From assembly GCF_009931435.1 (NCBI RefSeq), contig NZ_CP043414.1: a stretch of DNA of 64,000 nt, one strand, 5' to 3'. Shown here one piece after another: positions 2,081-48,444 of the stretch (position 1 is its first letter; each line of letters begins with the position of its first letter). The position numbers and the translations under genes were made by a program. The notes beneath the pieces were generated by a model, which saw only the letters and a program-made list of their open reading frames with translations, made no database searches and was not told where the DNA came from. Origin of the DNA: Escherichia coli. GTDB taxonomy: Bacteria; Pseudomonadota; Gammaproteobacteria; Enterobacterales; Enterobacteriaceae.

Positions 2081-4480
2081 ATGAAGCTAACCGATGCGGA
2101 TAATGCCGCCGATGGCATTTTTTTCCCCGCCCTTGAGCAAAATATGATGGGCGCGGTGTTAATTAACGAAAATGATGAAGTGATGTTTTTCAACCCCGCC
2201 GCAGAGAAGCTCTGGGGATACAAACGTGAAGAAGTCATTGGCAAAAACATTGATATGCTGATTCCGCGGGATTTGCGTCCTGCGCATCCTGAATATATCC
2301 GTCACAACCGTGAAGGCGGTAAAGCGCGCGTCGAGGGGATGAGTCGGGAGCTGCAGCTGGAGAAAAAAGACGGCAGTAAAATCTGGACCCGTTTTGCGCT
2401 ATCGAAAGTGAGCGCCGAGGGTAAAATTTATTACCTGGCGCTGGTACGTGATGCCAGCGTAGAAATGGCGCAAAAAGAACAGACCCGACAATTGATTATT
2501 GCTGTTGACCATCTCGACCGACCGGTGATTGTCCTCGATCCGGAACGCCATATTGTGCAGTGCAATCGCGCATTTACCGAAATGTTTGGTTACTGCATTA
2601 GCGAAGCCAGCGGTATGCAGCCCGATACACTCCTGAACATTCCAGAATTCCCTGCTGATAACCGCATTCGTTTACAACAGTTGCTATGGAAAACCGCCCG
2701 CGATCAGGACGAATTTCTGCTGTTGACGCGCACCGGTGAAAAAATCTGGATCAAAGCCTCTATCAGCCCGGTCTATGATGTGCTCGCACATCTGCAGAAC
2801 CTGGTAATGACTTTCTCGGATATCACCGAAGAACGGCAAATCCGCCAGCTTGAAGGCAATATTCTCGCCGCCATGTGCAGCAGCCCGCCATTTCATGAAA
2901 TGGGGGAAATCATTTGTCGTAACATCGAATCTGTTCTCAACGAATCGCATGTTTCGCTGTTCGCGCTGCGCAACGGGATGCCGATACACTGGGCGTCATC
3001 TTCGCACGGTACAGAAGTTCAAAATGCGCAAAGCTGGTCAGCGACCATTCGTCAGCGTGATGGCGCACCGGCGGGGATCCTGCAAATTAAAACCTCGTCA
3101 GGAGCAGAAACCAGCGCCTTTATCGAACGTGTGGCAGATATCAGCCAGCATATGGCCGCGCTGGCGCTGGAACAGGAAAAAAGCCGTCAGCATATTGAAC
3201 AACTCATCCAATTTGATCCGATGACCGGTCTGCCAAATCGCAATAACCTGCACAATTACCTCGATGACCTGGTCGACAAAGCCGTCTCTCCGGTGGTCTA
3301 TCTCATCGGTGTTGACCATATTCAGGATGTGATTGATAGCCTTGGCTATGCGTGGGCCGATCAGGCATTGCTGGAAGTGGTCAATCGCTTTCGTGAAAAA
3401 CTCAAACCGGATCAGTATCTCTGTCGTATCGAAGGTACGCAGTTTGTCCTCGTGAGCCTGGAAAACGACGTCAGTAACATTACCCAAATCGCCGATGAGC
3501 TACGGAATGTGGTCAGCAAGCCGATAATGATTGACGATAAACCATTCCCGCTCACCTTGAGCATTGGCATCAGCTACGACGTGGGTAAAAACCGCGATTA
3601 CCTGCTCTCCACTGCTCACAATGCAATGGATTTTATTCGCAAAAATGGCGGTAACGGCTGGCAGTTCTTCAGCCCGGTGATGAACGAAATGGTGAAAGAA
3701 CGATTGATATTAGGCGCAGCGCTGAAAGAAGCGATTAGCAATAACCAACTGAAACTGGTTTACCAACCACAAATCTTCGCAGAAACGGGTGAACTGTATG
3801 GTATCGAAGCCCTTGCTCGCTGGCACGATCCTCTGCATGGTCATGTGCCCCCTTCACGGTTTATTCCTCTCGCAGAAGAGATTGGCGAAATCGAAAATAT
3901 TGGGCGCTGGGTCATCGCGGAAGCTTGCCGTCAGTTAGCAGAATGGCGTAGCCAGAATATTCATATTCCAGCGTTATCCGTTAACTTGTCTGCGCTGCAC
4001 TTCCGCAGTAATCAGCTGCCTAATCAGGTGTCTGATGCAATGCAAGTCTGGGGCATTGACGGCCACCAGCTAACGGTGGAAATCACCGAAAGCATGATGA
4101 TGGAACACGATACGGAAATTTTTAAGCGCATCCAGATCCTGCGCGATATGGGCGTGGGTTTATCGGTAGATGATTTTGGCACGGGCTTTTCCGGATTATC
4201 CCGCTTAGTCAGTCTTCCGGTAACGGAAATCAAAATTGACAAAAGTTTTGTTGATCGTTGTCTGACGGAAAAACGCATCCTTGCCTTACTTGAAGCCATT
4301 ACCAGCATTGGGCAAAGCCTCAATTTAACCGTCGTGGCGGAAGGCGTCGAAACCAAAGAGCAATTTGAGATGCTACGTAAGATCCACTGTCGCGTTATTC
4401 AGGGATATTTCTTTTCCCGGCCCCTTCCCGCCGAAGAAATTCCAGGCTGGATGAGCAGCGTGTTACCGCTGAAAATCTGA
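2081..4480 (+). CDS. dosP: c-di-GMP phosphodiesterase DosP (PAS heme sensor + GGDEF-like + EAL)
   Basis: Track ORF 2057-4480; start placed at internal ATG 2081 (MKLTDADNA...) giving 799 aa; EAL region (QPQIFAETGELYGIEALARW) in translation. Confidence 0.92.
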   Translation: MKLTDADNAADGIFFPALEQNMMGAVLINENDEVMFFNPAAEKLWGYKREEVIGKNIDMLIPRDLRPAHPEYIRHNREGGKARVEGMSRELQLEKKDGSKIWTRFALSKVSAEGKIYYLALVRDASVEMAQKEQTRQLIIAVDHLDRPVIVLDPERHIVQCNRAFTEMFGYCISEASGMQPDTLLNIPEFPADNRIRLQQLLWKTARDQDEFLLLTRTGEKIWIKASISPVYDVLAHLQNLVMTFSDITEERQIRQLEGNILAAMCSSPPFHEMGEIICRNIESVLNESHVSLFALRNGMPIHWASSSHGTEVQNAQSWSATIRQRDGAPAGILQIKTSSGAETSAFIERVADISQHMAALALEQEKSRQHIEQLIQFDPMTGLPNRNNLHNYLDDLVDKAVSPVVYLIGVDHIQDVIDSLGYAWADQALLEVVNRFREKLKPDQYLCRIEGTQFVLVSLENDVSNITQIADELRNVVSKPIMIDDKPFPLTLSIGISYDVGKNRDYLLSTAHNAMDFIRKNGGNGWQFFSPVMNEMVKERLILGAALKEAISNNQLKLVYQPQIFAETGELYGIEALARWHDPLHGHVPPSRFIPLAEEIGEIENIGRWVIAEACRQLAEWRSQNIHIPALSVNLSALHFRSNQLPNQVSDAMQVWGIDGHQLTVEITESMMMEHDTEIFKRIQILRDMGVGLSVDDFGTGFSGLSRLVSLPVTEIKIDKSFVDRCLTEKRILALLEAITSIGQSLNLTVVAEGVETKEQFEMLRKIHCRVIQGYFFSRPLPAEEIPGWMSSVLPLKI

Positions 4481-36879: not shown

Positions 36880-37270
36880 AGAATCATATGCAGCAACCAA
36901 GTTGCTTAAGCAATGTTTCCATATGAGTTAAAAGATATTTTATCTCACGATTGCATATTTTTAGTGAAGATTAATTTATCCTCACCAACATCATAGTAAT
37001 TGCGTATTATCGCCTCATTGATAAAGCCCTATTTTGTATAAAATGCGCGGGCGGCACTAAAATCGATATGGCTAGAGATCTCTACTAAAAGTAGTCTTGC
37101 GTGATTGGGACAGGTCAAGAAAAAGCAGTTTTGCAGTTTTTTATTTCAGGGCGCAGTTGCGAAAATTGAATACCGTATGGACTAATGTGAGAAAATTCCG
37201 AGGTACGACTGTTTTGATATAGTGGACAATCAAGCGTCTCGAATTAACAATGAATTTCAGGTGCCAAGCC

Positions 37271-40024: not shown

Positions 40025-43000
40025 CTATTCTGGCGTGCCATTTATTGTTGCCGTCTGCGTTGGTGTATTCACACGATAATACACTCCATTATATGCTGTT
40101 CTGGTACACTCACCTAAAGTTTTCGCCGCATGCTGTTCAATTAAAGTGATAACTCTCGCCTCTTCTTTATTTTTATATTGTTCATCCGCACGTCTCACAA
40201 GCCCCATATAACCATCCTTATCAATAAGATATAAGTGCGCATGAGCAAACTCATGCCCCAAACCTAATGCAGGTGATTGTGATTTCGATTTTAAATCAGT
40301 TGAACAAAATAAAGCCGCCTTACCATTCCAATATATAGTCATTTTATCCGGGTCAAATCTAACGTCGGTTTCATCAATATACTCTATCTTTATGGTTTCT
40401 TCAGAGCTTGATAAAAAATCTATAGCTTCTTTCATTCGTGAATCTTGTTTTAAATACTCAACAGCCTGATTAAAATCACTTGGATCACCGTTAACATGGA
40501 ATTTTAAACCCAAAGAATCTATAAACCGAACAGGGTTTAATGGATATTTATACAGATTCCATTCACCTCTTAGCCCGATTGGATCCTGGGTGATATACCT
40601 CCCCTGTAGCGGGTCATAGTACCGGTTCCGGTTATAATACAGCCCCGACTCCTCATCGTGTTGCTGCCCTGGCAGACGGTACGGCTGGTGCATGTGATGC
40701 GAGTTTTCCTCATTCAGCAGGTTTCCCCACTCATCATACTCCCCGCTCCACGCCGTATTGCCGTCTTCGCTGATGAGCGCCAGCGGCAGGCCCCGGTGGT
40801 CGCAGTGATACAGATGCAGCGTGCGTGCCGGTGTGTATTCCGGCTCCACCTGTCTGGCCAGTTGCTCCACCGTCAGCCCGCACTGCGCAAGCCACGCCCG
40901 GCTTTCACTGCTCACGCGGTCTGCCCGGATTTCTTCCTCCAGCCTGTCCAGCATCCTCACAAGTTCTGCCGGGAACACCACACCGTGCCCGTCCTCACTC
41001 CCTTCCTGCTGCAGCTTCTCCGCCAGGCTCCGGCGCTGCGCTTTCTCCCGCTCGCCGTTCTCTGTTTCGATGCGGATGAGCGGCGTGAAGCTCCCAGGCT
41101 GGTAGACCGTCTGGATACGTGTGGTGTCGGTCTGTACCGTCGTCAGCCGGTCACCGTCCCACCCGTACCACGTTACCTCCGGTTTACGCGACAGCGACAT
41201 CCACCCCGTCAGGTCACGCTCCCGCCGCCATACCCGTTTCGCCATTCGCCGTCCCAGCGGGTCGTAGAGGTAGCGGCTCTCGACCAGTGGCTCGCCATGC
41301 TGTATCCGCGTGTAGAACACCAGGCGTGCTGGCTGTCGTAGTGGTAGTGGTGGGTCCGCTCGTCGTCCGTCCGTATCACACCCGCCGGGATGCGGTCCGT
41401 CTTCTCCGTCAGCCTGCCGTATTCATCGTGGCGGTAGACATAGTGCGCATCCTCCGCGATGCGGTTATCCGGCCACACTGTGAGTGTACTGTCCGGGTGC
41501 AGCTCCGGGTCCGGCAGCCGGTTGCCCGCCGGGTCCGTGGCATACGGGATGCGGATGTCCAGGTCCGGTGCGAGGGTGCGCACGCTCTCCAGCCTGCCCG
41601 TGGCACTGTAGCCGTATTCCCGCGTCTGTCGCGGGCCGCTGATGCGCACCAGGTCGCCGTTGTCATTCCACCCGTAGTCACGGTCATACACCAGGCTGTT
41701 CAGGTGCTGACTCTGTAACTGACCTGCGGGGGTGTATGTGCTGGTCAGTTCGTATGCGGAATTACTGCCTGCCATGCTGCCGAAGCTGCGCACCGTCTCA
41801 CGGTGCAGCCTGTCCCGCGTATACTCGACCAGCGGCGTCCCGCCCAGCTTCATTCCCGCCAGGTAACCGCTGCCATACGTCAGCCACTCCACCGGCGGCA
41901 GGCTGTCCGGCGTGACGCGGTTTGCCAGCCCCTGTTCGTTGTATGCCTGTTTCGTCTCATGCTGCCAGAGCAGTTCCTCCGTCTCCGGGTTATGCACCGT
42001 CTGGCGCTCGCCAGTCAGACGGCCCTTGTCGTCATAGCCATAGTGGACGGCAACACGGTGGCCTTCGCTCAGGTGGCTGATTTCTCTCAGCCAGCCGTGG
42101 CCATCATACTGCCACTGCTCTGCCGGTTCGCCGTTCACCGTGCGGTGCGTGATGCGGTCCGATTCGTCGTAGTGCCAGAGGGTGACAAGCCCCTCATCTT
42201 CACTCTGCGTGAGTTTTCCGGTCAGGTCATAGTGGTAACGTTGCGTCCGCCCGTCAAAGCCGCGCTGCTGTACCAGCCGGTCCAGCGCATCGTAGGTAAA
42301 CTCACTTCGGCTGCCGTTCTCGTTAGTCAGCGTGGTGACACGTCCGGCAGCATCATACTCCATACTGCGCGTCAGCCCGCCCTGCGTGGTACTGACCGCC
42401 TTTCCCCACGCATCGTACTGTGTCTCACTCCGGTTGCCATCCGGGGTGATGACGGCGGTCAGGTCGCCTGCGGCGTTGTACTCATACTGCGTTTCACGGC
42501 CCTGTGCGTCTTTCACCGAGGTTAACCGGCCACGGTTGTCATAGCGGCGGTAAAGGCTGATACCTTCCTCGCGGTGAACCGCCGTCATCTGGCCGAAGCG
42601 GTCGTATTCATAGCGGGTCTGGTAGCCCGAGCAGTCGGTGAAGGCCAGCAACTGCCCGTAGCGGCTCCAGGTCATCTGCCGGGTGCTGCCCGTCGCATCC
42701 GTTGTCGTCGCCGGTAACTCACTGTGCGGATTATCATAAGCATACCGGATGACGTCCCCGCTGCGCGATGTCTCCGTTACCAGCCTGTCCCGCTCATCAT
42801 ACGCCCGGCGGCTCTCCAGCCCGTCCGGGGACACCACCGCCGTTAACTGGTTCCCGTCGTTATAGTAAAATTTCGTCTCCCGCCCGTCCGGCGTGGTGAT
42901 ATCCGTGATATCGCCGGACACCACATTCAGGCCGTACTCTGTCCGCCGTCCCGCCGCGTCCGTCTGTGCCGTGAGCCTTCCTGCCGCGTCATACCCGCTG

Positions 43001-44277
43001 TGCGTGACGCTGCCGTCCGCCAGTTCTTTTTTCACCACCCGCTTCAGCCCGGCCCCGCCTTCTGTATGCAGCACCTCTCGCCGGTTCAGGCTGTCCGTGA
43101 TGGTGATGCGGTCCTGCTCATAAAGATAGCGATAGCTTAACCCTGCCGGGTTCAGCTGCTCCACCACCCGCCCGGTATCGTCGTAGCGGTAGCGCATCTC
43201 CGGCCTTCCCGCATAACGGTGCCCCACCATCCGGCCCGGGTGCTGCGCGTCATACGTGAAAGCGCGCACCTGCGTATTGCTGCGGTCATATACCGCCAGC
43301 AGTTCACCGGCTTCCGTATACGTGTAACGCGCCAGTGGCGCACCGGGCAGATTCTCCGGGTATGCCGGGTCGTGCATCAGCCACACCGCCGAAAGACGGA
43401 TGCCCCTGTCGGGGCCGTATTCCGTACCGGGCAGTGTGTCGGGGAACGCTGAGGCTGAGAGAGGGCGGGAACGGTCAGAAGAAGATAGCGAAGAGGTGCG
43501 GGCCTCTTCCGCACGCTGCGCCTGCGTGGTCAGCACCAGACGGAACTTCCGCCCGGCACCGTCCGTCACGCTGGTGATTTCCCCAGCCAGGTCACCGGCG
43601 GCCTCACGCCGGTACGTCAGCGTCCGCCCGAAGCGGTCCGCCAGCCCGGTAAGCACCCGGTACGGCGGCAGCGGCGCTGGCAGTACGTCCTCAGCACCCG
43701 GCACCCGCTCACTCCACCCCAGTATCCACCACGACCCCTGTGCGCTGTTGGTCGCCAGGTAAAGATGCGGGCTTAACCGGATATCCGGCGGCAGCGCCCC
43801 CCACAGTCGCGCCAGCGTGTGGCCGTCCGGCTGCGCTGCCTTACCACCGCGCACCAGCCACATTGACTCGCTGCGGCTGTACACCGCCTCCCCCGGCAGC
43901 AGCGGCTCAAAGTGAATGCTCCGCCCGCCGTTGTCGTTGAGTATCAGTGCGTCATCACGTAGCTGTAAGCGGATATCCGAAGGCGCTTTCCAGCCGGGGC
44001 CGAAAACGCCCACCGGGGCAGGCGTCCTCGTCCGGTAGCTGCTGTAGGTGCGGGAGAGAATGAACGGCAGCGGGCCGGGCAGCGCAAGGTCCGTCTCGCC
44101 GGGCAGCACCTTCGCCCCCAGCAGCGGATTTACCGGGTTGCCCGAAGTCATCCCGCCCGGACACACCGAGCACGCCACGCCGGTGGGCGCGCCAATTCTT
44201 ACACCTGCCGAACCCTGGACAATGGGACCGCCATACTGAGTCATATCTCCCTGACGCGCTGCTGGTTTTCCGCTCAT
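40025..44277 (-). CDS. Rhs-family polymorphic toxin (PAAR-like N-terminus, YD-repeat shell, variable C-terminal tip), interrupted by an apparent -1 frameshift near 41325
   Basis: Track ORFs 41209-44277 (1022 aa) and 40025-41320 (431 aa) overlap in different frames; YD repeats throughout; DPIGL core-end motif; C-terminal tip contains HEFAH. Confidence 0.85.
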
Positions 44278-44343: not shown

Positions 44344-46452
44344 TCAGTACTCTCTCATATCCGGCGTATCCTGCTTTTCATCAGGGGTCTTCGGTGGGGA
44401 TTTCGAGGCTGCACAGTTCCAGTTAATCAACAGTGAGTCACCATTAACCTGCTCCTTACCCTGCAAATGAATTTTTGTGCCGTTGAGAAAAATTTGTCCG
44501 TCCTTAGTCAGCACCAGCCTTGCCTTACCACAGCAGAGTTCCAGATGCTCACCGGCGGAGTAAATCGCGGTCTGCCCGGTATCATCCTTTTTCGTTTTAC
44601 CAACGGTGAAGGTAACGTTATTTCCGACTTTGACGTCATAACCCAGCCCGACCATCAACGATTTATGCAAACCGATCTGCGAGGACTGCATCAGGGCCAC
44701 CGAGGTGTTCATAATGCCACCTACCGTCGTCTGATACGCCACGCCCACAGTCAGCGCACGAACAAGTCCAATCGTTTCCACCTGAACAGAGCCCACTTTA
44801 ATGATCTGGTTACTGCCCACCGTCTCTATCTGGTTAACGCCCACCGTCTGTATCTGATTGTTGGTAACCGCAATCACCTGATTGTTGCCGATGGTCTCAG
44901 CATGGTTGTTTATCACATCCGTGGTGCGGTTATTCAGCACCTCGGTGTTCATGTTCTTCTGCGCGTGGATGTAGACCTGTTCTTTCCCTGTCGCATCGTC
45001 AAACTTCAGTTCATTAAACCCGCTGCCCTTATAGGTTTTCGAACGAATGGTCATCTGCGTCTTTGTTCCCGGCAGGCTGCCGGGGGTGCGGTTTTCCTGG
45101 TGGTAGGTACGCCCCATAATAATCGGCTGGTCCGGATCGCCGTTGAGGAAGTCCACAATGACCTCCTGACCCACACGCGGTATCGCCAGGTTACCAAACC
45201 CGGTGCCTGCCCACGCCTGTGCCACACGGATCCAGCATGAACTGTCCTGGTTTGACGGGTTATAACGGTCCCAGTTAAATTTCACCCGCACGCGGCCATG
45301 TTCATCACAGAAGATTTCTTCTCCTGCCGGTCCCGTCACGACGGCGCTCTGCGGGCCATCCACCAGCGGTTTCAGCAACGGCTGTGGCCGCCATGTTCTG
45401 TCTGCCGGTATTACCGCAAAGTGGTTATTCAGCGTGGTACCTGAACCCCTGCGTCCCGGCACCGCCTGCGGCTGCTCGCCGTGCAGTTCACTTGCCACCA
45501 CCTGCCATTCCCGGTTCAGGTTCGCCTGCGGATGCCCCGTCAGCGCAATTCGCCGTCCCGGCCATATCTCCGGAGAACGGCTTGTTCCGCGCGCCACTTC
45601 TGCGTTGTTTCGCCAGCCATCCATCTGCCAGCGGGCAAAGTTCTGCCCGTGGGCACCCTTGAAACGTCCGGGGTAGTCATACACTTCATACTGTGTGCGC
45701 TGGTAATCCTGGTACTGGCCTTCCTGATCAAAACGCCCTGCCCAGCCGGGTCGTTTAAAGGTGTAGTCCTTGGTCACCACGGAAGAAGGGCGGATTTGTG
45801 CGCTGTAGCGGAACTGGCTGATGCATAGGGTGCTCACCTCGGTACGGGTGTTCGGATTCCAGGGGATCTCAAAGGACTCCGGCAGATAACGCACGGTGTC
45901 GCACAGGACCAGGCTCTGGTCGGTACTTTTTTGCGCGTGCTCCTCATAAAAGAAGATGCCTTCCTCCGCCGCCATCCGGCACAGGAAATCGTAATCGGTT
46001 TCGCCGTACTGGACACAAAACTCACGGGAAGGATGCGGCTCGCTGAACAGCGGACTCCACTCGGTCACCCCGTTTTCTTTCAGGATCGTCGCGAGTATGC
46101 TTTCGATGTCCTCATTCTGGAAGATACGGAAGTTCTGGCGCAGCCCTGTGCGCCACAGCGGTGGGCACACCTTCATGCTGTACAGCATCTGGTTTTTGTC
46201 GTTCTCCCCCAGTTCAAACCAGGTCACCACACCTTTTACCCGGCGCTGTACGTCATCGCCCTGCCATACCGTCAGGTAGGCCATTTTGTCGAGGATCTGC
46301 GGAAATTCAAGGGAAAGAAACTGCTGACTGACCAGAGAAAGGTCGAGGGAAAAAAGTGAAGAGAGTGACTGGGTGAGATGAAAGGAAACCACCGCAAACG
46401 CGTCCGGTGGCAGGCCGTCCACTTCCAGCGTGAAACGTAATCCGGTTGACAT
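44344..46452 (-). CDS. vgrG: VgrG-type T6SS spike protein
   Basis: Track ORF 44344-46488; start at ATG 46452 (MSTGLRFTLEVDGLPPDAF...); gp27/gp5-like; Val-Gly repeats (VGVNQIETVGSNQIIKVGSVQVETIG). Confidence 0.9.
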   Translation of the reverse strand: MSTGLRFTLEVDGLPPDAFAVVSFHLTQSLSSLFSLDLSLVSQQFLSLEFPQILDKMAYLTVWQGDDVQRRVKGVVTWFELGENDKNQMLYSMKVCPPLWRTGLRQNFRIFQNEDIESILATILKENGVTEWSPLFSEPHPSREFCVQYGETDYDFLCRMAAEEGIFFYEEHAQKSTDQSLVLCDTVRYLPESFEIPWNPNTRTEVSTLCISQFRYSAQIRPSSVVTKDYTFKRPGWAGRFDQEGQYQDYQRTQYEVYDYPGRFKGAHGQNFARWQMDGWRNNAEVARGTSRSPEIWPGRRIALTGHPQANLNREWQVVASELHGEQPQAVPGRRGSGTTLNNHFAVIPADRTWRPQPLLKPLVDGPQSAVVTGPAGEEIFCDEHGRVRVKFNWDRYNPSNQDSSCWIRVAQAWAGTGFGNLAIPRVGQEVIVDFLNGDPDQPIIMGRTYHQENRTPGSLPGTKTQMTIRSKTYKGSGFNELKFDDATGKEQVYIHAQKNMNTEVLNNRTTDVINNHAETIGNNQVIAVTNNQIQTVGVNQIETVGSNQIIKVGSVQVETIGLVRALTVGVAYQTTVGGIMNTSVALMQSSQIGLHKSLMVGLGYDVKVGNNVTFTVGKTKKDDTGQTAIYSAGEHLELCCGKARLVLTKDGQIFLNGTKIHLQGKEQVNGDSLLINWNCAASKSPPKTPDEKQDTPDMREY

Positions 46453-47272
46453 AGCAACCTCCGTGAAAATGAATAATAATCCGCACATATTGCATGTACA
46501 ACATGTCGGACGGATGAGATAAGCGAGTCGACATCTGGCGTTACCGGGGAATATCAGAAAAATGTCATGGTTATGTGATGATTTAGTCTGGGATTTTACT
46601 TCAGAGAAACGGGTGTCTGTTTAGTCAACAAAATAATCACAAACGCAACGGATGGGTTCTCGACGTTATTCACGACAGGCTCGTACATTACAGCGAGTAA
46701 TAAAAAACCTGATATGCAAAGTCAAACCAATATTCATAATGTCTTTTTATTCACAAAAATAAATAATTCAATAACAATCATTGAAATGAATGATGGTTTG
46801 TATAAGGAATATACGCTACCGCCCCACCCTGATAACATGATCTGCACATTGCCATCTTAACGTCGTTAAACACTGGCTTAATAGTGGATATTTCAAATTA
46901 GGAATTTATTAAATTCACCTGATGAATATCATAAGCAAATAGCATAGAAAATAATGACAACTCCCCCGAGGGGACCATTTCCAAAGCACTGCAACACCAC
47001 CTGGTGCCCGGATGATCTTGCTTCAGTGGTAAGAGTACCTGATTCATTGTTCCCAAAATGGTGTTTTCCCCTGCCCCTCCAATAACGTGCAGCTCTCACG
47101 TGATAATCTATTGATTAGGTTATATTAAGAATCAATATTTGAAATACATCCATTTTCTTGAATAAATCAACATATTTATTTATCAATTGCTGTTTTAGCT
47201 CTGACTCATCAAACTCTCCATATTTTTCCTACAGAAAATCGCGAATAAATACAGAGAACGCCATTTATCCTT

Positions 47273-47485
47273 TTAGCATACCTGCCGGATATTTTTATTT
47301 GTATTAATATTAATTGCATCTCCAACTCCGAGCATATCCATTATTAAAGACATTTTGAGATTATAGAATGCCTGTGATAACAACTGAAACATCTGCACAA
47401 TGTGAATAGTTAGTTTCTTTTCAGAGGAAATGAAATAGACAAGCTGAATGAAAGGGAGAGTGATATAAATTAAAAAACATAACAT
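47273..47485 (-). CDS. Small hypothetical protein (YncH-like by position and length)
   Basis: 70-codon ORF in AT-rich region; only ORF in the 1 kb gap; identity by position only. Confidence 0.3.
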   Translation of the reverse strand: MLCFLIYITLPFIQLVYFISSEKKLTIHIVQMFQLLSQAFYNLKMSLIMDMLGVGDAININTNKNIRQVC

Positions 47486-47560
47486 GAATCTAATTAATTA
47501 CGTCCATCATTGTGGATAAAGTTACTGAATAATAAATAACATAATATTCTGGTATCCCAC

Positions 47561-48178
47561 TCAAATAATTTCATTCCTTTTTAATACTTCTTGTAATTTC
47601 GGTAACTGACATACAGCATCAGCGATCGCACTGATATTCGTGGCATTATCCTGAAACCATTCATGCCCAGGCCCCCATGTGCGCATAGTGCAAAGATAAC
47701 AGTCCACCAGCGTTAGTTGCTCACCAAACGCATAAGGTTCAGCGGTCAATTGTGAATTCAGCCAGATATAAAGCGATTTACGATATTCAATAACATTCTT
47801 CTTTAACTGTTCGGGTGCGTCAGGAGCCCAACGCTCAGGGTAATCGGCGAAAGTGAATGTTGGATAGACATTAGCAACCAGCCAGACCAATAGCCGTTGA
47901 AACTGCTGACGTTCGGCGCGCCTAACCGGTGGCGCAAGGTCCGGGCGACGATCGAGAACCATCAATGCAATCGCCGCTGTCTCCGTCATAATCTCGTCAT
48001 TTTCCAGCGCCAGTGTCGGAATCTGACACAACGGGTTCAGGGTTTTCAATAACTCGCGTGAAGTTCCCTCGTGGTCAAAACCACTGACATCAACGAACTG
48101 ATAAGGAATATCAGCCAGTGATAGCATCAGCTCACTGATTGTAGAGCCCCATCCGGGTACGCCATACACCTTAATCAT
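47561..48178 (-). CDS. yncG: Glutathione S-transferase homologue
   Basis: 205 aa ORF MIKVYGVPGWGSTISELMLSLADIPYQF... Confidence 0.85.
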   Translation of the reverse strand: MIKVYGVPGWGSTISELMLSLADIPYQFVDVSGFDHEGTSRELLKTLNPLCQIPTLALENDEIMTETAAIALMVLDRRPDLAPPVRRAERQQFQRLLVWLVANVYPTFTFADYPERWAPDAPEQLKKNVIEYRKSLYIWLNSQLTAEPYAFGEQLTLVDCYLCTMRTWGPGHEWFQDNATNISAIADAVCQLPKLQEVLKRNEII

Positions 48179-48444
48179 ATGCCCCTCACAATCTTTTAAA
48201 GATTAAGTGTAGGACAGTACACAGGTTAACCAGCAAAAGGATTTGTCATTTTTTCGTCAGTTGTATTATTCCCCTTCAGGATTGTAAGGGGATGTTTTGC
48301 ATCGTTTATCGATAACGGGTAGGATGCTGCGCCGATAGTTTTATACCCATAAAGAATAATGGTGATAACTATCATCGCCAGGATGAATAAACATTGTTCA
48401 TGGCAACTTATATGACTTTTTCATTAAAGCAATCAGGGAGAGCA

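Follow-up and report, generated by a model that had tools for sequence, protein, structure and literature searches.

A composite AT-rich spacer upstream of the vgrG-rhs (RhsE) operon of Escherichia coli: a probable cis-regulatory half joined to locus-specific DNA around yncH

The regulation of orphan vgrG islands in Escherichia coli is an acknowledged gap, and groups working on enterohaemorrhagic E. coli (EHEC), who describe operons as silent, suspect that control has further layers. In EHEC, a paralogous vgrG operon has been reported to be transcriptionally silent, and when the vgrG1 promoter was swapped there was still no VgrG1, for which the authors suggest post-transcriptional repression (PMC13141884). 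The closest described counterpart of the DNA treated here is the yncH-rhsE spacer of E. coli K-12 (b1455-b1456), a spacer of 738 bp in which yncH is the sole annotation. For K-12, Shimada et al. list the entry 'yncH > HNS > rhsE, TTGACT-17-TATTAC', obtained by genomic SELEX (gSELEX) with RpoD (PMC3946193 Table 3), where the HNS label denotes a spacer containing H-NS gSELEX sites. This work addresses the AT-rich stretch 46489-47560, which lies between vgrG and yncG in a 64-kb window of the E. coli chromosome, the window being the whole stretch of DNA that was analysed. The stretch precedes vgrG-rhs, a type VI secretion system (T6SS) cargo operon. Our main explanation, which we hold to be probable, is that the region combines a cis-regulatory 5' half of the vgrG-rhs operon with a locus-specific half that contains yncH. 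The stretch is otherwise ordinary and essentially catalogued: it is the standard spacer before the RhsE element, and binding of RNA polymerase and H-NS to its K-12 form has been published.

The gene order in the window is pqqU(yncD)-yncE-ansP-yncG-yncH-vgrG-rhs. The cargo is an RhsE island: a VgrG gene with an Rhs core gene after it sits at the yncG-ansP locus, shares the flanks of K-12 rhsE and is collinear with it. The K-12 spacer is the same DNA, 97.5% identical from 46520 to yncG; in NC_000913.3 nothing but yncH is annotated between yncG and rhsE, and the published promoter motif is also present in the window. The two loci differ downstream. The spacer of the window is followed by an intact vgrG and an rhs that is full-length but frameshifted, whereas K-12 has a deletion that brings position 46520 up against the 3' part of the rhsE core, so that the homology ends in a fusion to the rhsE pseudogene, and the truncation of the downstream element in K-12, anticipated in a preliminary description of this DNA, is confirmed. 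The rhs open reading frames (ORFs) of the window, 40025-41320 and 41209-44277 on the minus strand, overlap and are split near 41327 by the loss of one nucleotide (CCAGGCG-TGCTGG) that the intact homologue in NZ_CP027579.1 retains; the deletion is either a real frameshift, making rhs a pseudogene, or a sequencing error. The same NZ_CP027579.1 is the closest complete genome, with 99.1% identity over the stretch. Of 5426 complete E. coli genomes, 3551 carry the whole stretch, in most cases with 95-99% identity.

In composition, the stretch stands apart from its surroundings. Its GC content is 0.351 against 0.498 for the whole window, within the lowest 5% of 1072-bp segments of that window, with a minimum of 0.30 at 47100-47550; the adjoining vgrG-rhs cargo genes have a GC content of about 0.55-0.70, and the stretch itself 30-36%. 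Two other 1-kb stretches of the window, around 23050-23650 and 36900-37050, are more AT-rich still (31.5-32.6% GC). The AT-richness, the flanking genes and the single long frame noted in the preliminary description were all borne out. The product of vgrG carries the Pfam domains Phage_GPD, Gp5_trimer_C and Phage_base_V, that of yncG is a GST-family protein by Pfam, and the ORF list holds a single ORF of at least 60 codons that lies entirely within the stretch, the 70-aa frame 47273-47485 on the minus strand; another frame, of 75 aa at 46307-46534, only overlaps the vgrG start. What had been overlooked is that the 70-codon frame is the annotated gene yncH, and that the stretch consists of two parts joined at about 46957. 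The vgrG start had to be moved. It had been placed at 46488, where an in-frame upstream ATG is found; the start annotated in RefSeq is the ATG at 46452 (MSTGLRF...), which has GGAGG 5 nt ahead of it, at 46458-46462. The unannotated DNA therefore comprises 46453-47272 (820 bp) and the 75-bp spacer between yncG and yncH.

The internal boundary is observed directly by comparison with a second island. A vgrG-DcrB-rhs island adjoining cusS is 84.6% identical to the window over 46001-46957, a match that begins inside vgrG and ends at 46957, and the right half of the stretch, 46958-47560, is single-copy and found only at the yncG-yncH locus. The stretch is a composite of two halves joined at about 46957/46958. 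The cusS-adjacent region is collinear with the window from vgrG through the leader and a conserved block to 46957, and it has the same Shine-Dalgarno context and the same core within the block. It differs in its leader, which is 24% divergent, carries an 8-bp deletion that ruins the spacing of the K-12-type promoter and has further indels, and in its neighbour, the cusS-adjacent copy being flanked by cusS and the window copy by yncH. Judged from the metallopeptidase annotation of its Rhs protein, this island is probably the vgrG1-rhsF/G island of EHEC. The acquisition junction that had been suggested for this DNA is supported in that homology to the cusS-adjacent vgrG module stops at about 46957, and in that the block stands before no fewer than five different cargo islands.

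At the boundary lies a hairpin on the minus strand (46958-46974), located by the end of homology at 46957, a terminator-like scan and the minimum free energy (MFE) fold. The hairpin TCCCCTCGGGGGA at 46974-46962 is GC-rich, has five pairs (four of them G-C) and a 3-nt loop, and forms in the MFE fold. Its tail, GUUGUCAUUAUUUUCU, becomes U-rich only after 8 nt, and hairpin and tail together span 46974-46950. The terminator-like scan gave one match in the stretch against a mean of 1.1 in shuffled sequences, and one of the 17 positions of 46958-46974 is variable in 12 sequences. From its sequence, the hairpin is a candidate terminator that probably halts read-through from yncG and yncH. Beyond it come 300 bp of featureless spacer and then yncH. 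This spacer, here called spacer B (46975-47272), is locus-specific and single-copy, has no assignable feature and has a GC content of about 0.38-0.43.

The two halves also differ in sequence constraint. Diversity was measured in 35 distinct window-type sequences, mostly metagenome contigs picked by the core pattern and independently of yncH. The lowest value, 0.0116, belongs to the ansP-yncG promoter region, followed by the leader (0.0146) and the hairpin plus block (0.0151). Higher values were obtained for the AT stretch that separates the block from the leader (0.0250), spacer B (0.0258), yncG at all sites (0.0265), the yncG-yncH spacer (47486-47560, minus strand, 75 bp; 0.0267) and yncH (0.0280), and the highest for third codon positions of yncG (0.0445). 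The genome collection agrees: 46453-46950 is at least 99% identical to the window in 2587 genomes, and spacer B, which is present in 3575 genomes, reaches that identity in only one. Because the diversity values and the genome-wide identity classes agree, we conclude that conservation of the vgrG-proximal half is about double that of the yncH half and close to the level of a bona fide promoter region. A first estimate from five sequences picked by YncH variant (0.8% variable leader sites against 10% in vgrG) was superseded; with 35 sequences the difference is about two-fold.

These observations suggest the following arrangement. The segment 46453-46957 would be the cis-regulatory 5' region of the vgrG-rhs (RhsE) T6SS cargo operon, moving with vgrG. 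One or more sigma-70 promoters would read toward vgrG, the choice among them in vivo being something we infer, and would produce a leader, at most some hundreds of nucleotides long, that ends in a strong Shine-Dalgarno sequence. The vgrG-proximal DNA, in common with other acquired AT-rich DNA, would be coated and silenced by H-NS under laboratory conditions, and its most conserved part, the 118-bp block at 46810-46927, would most likely serve as an upstream control site.

The published K-12 promoter motif is found in the window 245 nt upstream of the vgrG ATG. This predicted sigma-70 rhsE promoter occupies 46697-46725 on the minus strand, with TTGACT at 46725-46720, a 17-nt spacer and TATTAC at 46702-46697. 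The candidate long 5' untranslated region of vgrG that would start there, referred to here as the leader, covers 46453-46699 on the minus strand and ends with the GGAGG. Its best-conserved patch in the alignment of the window with the cusS locus is TTGTGATTATTTTGTTGACTAAACAGACACCCGTTTCTCTGAAGTAAAAT (46596-46645, minus strand), 50 bp kept in both paralogs, which contains a -35-like TTGACT hexamer at 46623-46628. No convincing -10 hexamer stands beside this TTGACT, and a promoter role for the patch is conceivable from its sequence. A further promoter-like site, a weak one from the consensus scan, lies in the core of the block at 46808-46835 on the minus strand (TTATCA, a 16-nt spacer and TATATT); both of its hexamers are retained in the copy at the cusS locus and not in the loci described below as type iii.

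The H-NS-silenced promoter of the preliminary description stands in part. A promoter and H-NS binding are on record for the K-12 spacer (PMC3946193), and these in vitro data, with the comparative mapping given above, support that description for the vgrG-proximal half; silencing would extend to this strain. H-NS-silenced island promoters, including those of the EHEC T6SS main cluster, resemble the locus in that AT-rich DNA lies beside cargo genes of 55-68% GC, in that H-NS binding is reported for the K-12 homologue, and in that the paralogous operon is reported to be silent in EHEC. Four sites within two mismatches of the high-affinity H-NS motif TCGATAAATT occur in the stretch, a count that is uninformative and was dropped as evidence. 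Other gSELEX peaks were also considered, after converting coordinates (U00096.2 is about 1976 lower than NC_000913.3). The RpoN peak 'yncH>ydcD' (1527534) was rejected as a sigma-54 promoter, since its converted position falls inside the rhsE pseudogene, about 410 bp before ydcD, and the GG-N10-GC spacing of sigma-54 promoters is absent from the conserved block. The RpoS peak (1528272) falls inside ydcD after conversion. For FlhDC, a weak peak was placed some 60 bp downstream of yncH.

Several points weigh against reading the vgrG-proximal half as a regulatory region. The 8-bp spacer deletion breaks the published promoter in the cusS-locus paralog, and the consensus promoter scan found 3 sites where shuffled sequence gave 5.8. 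Binding of RNA polymerase and H-NS was recorded in vitro and for K-12, whose operon is truncated. Between the paralogs the leader is 24% divergent, with indels, against 18% at vgrG third positions, a divergence close to the synonymous rate, from which it follows that long-term constraint is confined to patches. The lower diversity of the vgrG-proximal half could result from recombination history and not from function. Lastly, yncH is open in nearly all sequences and has a Pfam match, and could be a real small protein.

That last point leads to an explanation of the stretch in which yncH (47273-47485, minus strand) is a genuine small-protein gene, possibly encoding a membrane protein, as its N-terminal third is hydrophobic, and its 3' and 5' flanks make up much of the stretch. 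We regard this as rather unlikely. The gene is annotated in K-12 and by the PGAP annotation pipeline, its frame is open in 33 of 35 distinct sequences, and its match to the Pfam family DUF5445 is strong (E=1.6e-38, 130.7 bits against a cut-off of 25, residues 19-70). This match is self-recognition, because the DUF5445 family is confined to Escherichia: a database of 5.8 billion proteins holds 158 relatives of YncH, all Escherichia-like, and the best 120 of the 158 are at least 84% identical. The substitutions in yncH are those of neutral DNA. Its variable sites fall on the three codon positions in the ratio 9:10:9, compared with 25:10:34 in yncG; its single-step codon variants comprise 5 synonymous and 20 nonsynonymous changes, which is the neutral expectation, compared with 40:29 in yncG; and the ratio of nonsynonymous to synonymous change (pN/pS) relative to Escherichia sp. 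E4742 is about 2 for yncH and 0.21 for yncG. The start is unstable as well. No Shine-Dalgarno-like sequence precedes the ATG in the 75-bp spacer, the start codon is ACG in another allele, and in the very common 81- and 100-aa forms the annotated ATG is no longer in frame, owing to a 1-nt change in a T-run just behind it (47470-47485); length variation of this run generates the 81-, 93-, 95- and 100-aa forms of 'YncH' in databases, which use upstream starts. In purifying selection, codon periodicity, stability of the start and ribosome-binding site, yncH does not behave like a protein-coding gene. It is absent from the loci of types iii, iv and v (B2-type) that were inspected (L005, L006, L008 and L010).

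The sequence of yncH shows no sign of protein-level selection and evolves like non-coding DNA, and yncH may be a young or spurious gene. It resembles other orphan ORFs in the AT-rich, H-NS-bound DNA of E. coli in being short, of about 30% GC, limited to Escherichia, devoid of a Shine-Dalgarno sequence and neutral; it differs from them in having its own Pfam family, in being open in most strains and in being treated as a real gene by databases. Functional screens have been cited in its favour. An ASKA clone of yncH appears in a list of oxidant-resistance hits (PMC8228696), and yncH and ydcD, with low Tn5 insertion in K-12, were classed as 'essential only by TraDIS' (transposon-directed insertion site sequencing; PMC5821084 Table 2). 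H-NS has been reported to bias transposon insertion (PMC4999555), and the low insertion index of yncH and ydcD is more likely an insertion bias in AT-rich, H-NS-bound DNA than a mark of essentiality; taken together, the two reports are an indirect in vivo hint in favour of the composite explanation. The presence of yncH in essential-gene and overexpression lists probably reflects H-NS-coated AT-rich DNA and not the function of a protein. As further observations on this gene pair, the genomes with alternative islands (L005, L006, L007 and L010) have no yncH and keep a trace of yncG, 68% identical over about 100 bp matching window positions 47898-47999, and in clone D i14 yncG is a frameshifted pseudogene with an internal stop. 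It follows that yncG-yncH is dispensable and decaying in part of the species.

In another explanation, the stretch would encode a small regulatory RNA, as the preliminary description had allowed, or a structured cis-acting leader (such as a riboswitch or thermosensor) controlling vgrG; we consider this very unlikely. In its favour, the leader may have a length of 240-350 nt, according to which promoter is used, a hairpin with a U-rich tail is present at 46974-46950, and post-transcriptional repression has been suggested for EHEC vgrG1, which is probably the cusS-locus paralog. Both paralogs keep two GGA motifs close to the Shine-Dalgarno sequence, motifs that could conceivably fit CsrA. The signals expected of a structured RNA did not appear. 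Over 46000-48300 no Rfam family was matched at E<=1, the folding energies of leader and block do not surpass those of shuffled sequences (z-scores +0.57, +0.61 and -0.80, the leader at +0.57 being of ordinary RNA stability), and the consensus fold of the block reaches -3.9 kcal/mol with a covariation term of -0.14, essentially no covariation and no consensus structure. The 24% divergence of the leader, with indels, also speaks against a conserved structure. Small proteins, another earlier suggestion, fared no better, since the short ORFs are lost, or differ only nonsynonymously, between the paralogous copies. Two candidates, an ORF in the core beginning MCRSCYQGGAVAY... and a 30-codon ORF at 46688-46596, are open in the paralog with differences that are nonsynonymous or frame-breaking, and both were rejected. 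No consistently open or synonymously evolving reading frame exists in the block across the aligned contexts.

The stretch could alternatively be the decayed remnant of one or more former genes, which the preliminary description had named as the outcome that would overturn its view. This appears extremely improbable to us. Gene decay does occur at the locus, where types iii and v keep yncG as the 68%-identical trace of about 100 bp and type iv has the yncG pseudogene, and spacer B is GC-richer than its surroundings. No trace of a former gene was found in the stretch itself by Pfam, tblastn or protein search. Its four intergenic ORFs (48, 43, 56 and 49 aa) have no Pfam match; the 56-aa ORF, the longest of spacer B, has only E. 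coli self-matches in protein search; and tblastn searches with the genes found here in other types of island gave no match. Decay from the effector and immunity genes of type iii, or from a PAAR gene, was considered and rejected on the same tblastn result.

The mildly new item in this region is the conserved block alone. It measures 118 bp (46810-46927) and contains a 37-bp core, GTGCAGATCATGTTATCAGGGTGGGGCGGTAGC, at 46811-46847, and a perfect 7-1-7 palindrome, GAATTTAtTAAATTC (also written GAATTTAnTAAATTC), at 46902-46916. Some match to the block exists in 5291 of 5426 genomes, and the block remains 74-77% identical where both flanks are unalignable. Its occurrence before alternative cargo islands is undescribed in the literature searched, and we infer from this placement a role as a cis-element. 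Five contexts were distinguished. In type i, that of the window, the block precedes vgrG-rhs; in type ii it precedes the vgrG-DcrB-rhs island adjoining cusS; and in type iii it precedes orf176-orf118-vgrG-DcrB-rhs (strains EC554 and M8; Escherichia sp. E1V33), at a locus without yncH in which yncG is reduced to its trace. Type iv, in clone D i14, has the core (94.6% identical) before a remnant of an ISAs1 end and PAAR-vgrG-DUF4123-effector, and in type v, in sequence type 131 (ST131), an ISEc1 element cuts the block at ATCAGGG. A metagenome contig (L136, 1-3100) shows the end of yncG and the core followed by five small AT-rich ORFs (90-195 aa) and no vgrG; this set may be an array of orphan immunity genes. 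A scan of metagenome contigs with the core pattern returned only these known types of context. A scan of one genome per species with the related pattern ATGTGCAGATNANGNTATCAGGG matched only Escherichia sp. E1V33; this pattern is fairly strict, and diverged copies in other genera could escape it.

It is tempting to see in the block, with its core and palindrome, a dedicated 'address' before interchangeable T6SS cargo islands (vgrG-rhs, PAAR-vgrG-adaptor-effector, effector/immunity-vgrG-rhs and immunity arrays), through which an unknown factor would co-regulate the orphan cargo operons with the secretion machine, or at which cassettes would be exchanged; we hold this to be doubtful. In the more specific wording, the block and core would be an operator for a dedicated regulator of orphan cargo operons, or a homology anchor or junction for island swaps, and this too we judge improbable. 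The block is found upstream of five cargo types (vgrG-rhs, vgrG-DcrB-rhs, orf176-orf118-vgrG-DcrB-rhs, PAAR-vgrG-DUF4123-effector and the small-ORF array), its core stays 94.6% identical where both flanks are unalignable, it holds a perfect palindrome, its diversity is about half that of the neighbouring spacer, and in two lineages it is bordered, each time at another position, by an end of an ISAs1-family element. Against this, no protein is known to bind it. No second copy occurs within the 64-kb window, which shows that the block is not a flanking att-like repeat, and no integrase is annotated in the islands inspected, which lack the marks of an att-like site. Moreover, common descent at one locus with one duplication to cusS suffices as an account, because the ATGTGCAGATNANGNTATCAGGG scan matched one Escherichia sp. 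only. The metagenome matches to the core pattern all belong to the same few types. A Fur box overlapping the GATC of the core was also considered by eye; the hexamers resemble GATAAT/ATTATC, the spacing is wrong, and the candidate was dropped. The conserved block and the conserved leader patches offer small, testable targets for the study of orphan vgrG regulation.

Insertion sequences (IS) touch the block and its surroundings in several strains. Two B2 lineages have ISAs1-family (ISEc1/H-repeat) ends against the block, each at a position of its own (L006, about 4001-4023; L008, 4940-5000): ST131 carries an intact ISEc1 that begins at the block's own CAGGG, and clone D i14 an IS-end remnant of about 110 bp that begins 25 bp further on. 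An insertion hot spot and a coincidence are both conceivable. In strain PSS-12, IS5 replaces window positions 46875-47178, a deletion, and vgrG is truncated (L003, 5387-6583), and in strain EC590 an IS1 is annotated adjoining yncH (hit H27). These natural insertions indicate that parts of the block and of spacer B can be lost. Where the island is of the type without yncH, two proteins are encoded ahead of vgrG, one of 176 aa with the motif HEMMH (HExxH) and one of 118-120 aa with the lipobox LSGC (L007, 6262-7145; L010, 2863-3752). Neither has a Pfam match, and from their motifs the two look like an uncharacterised pair of a metallopeptidase effector and a lipoprotein immunity protein.

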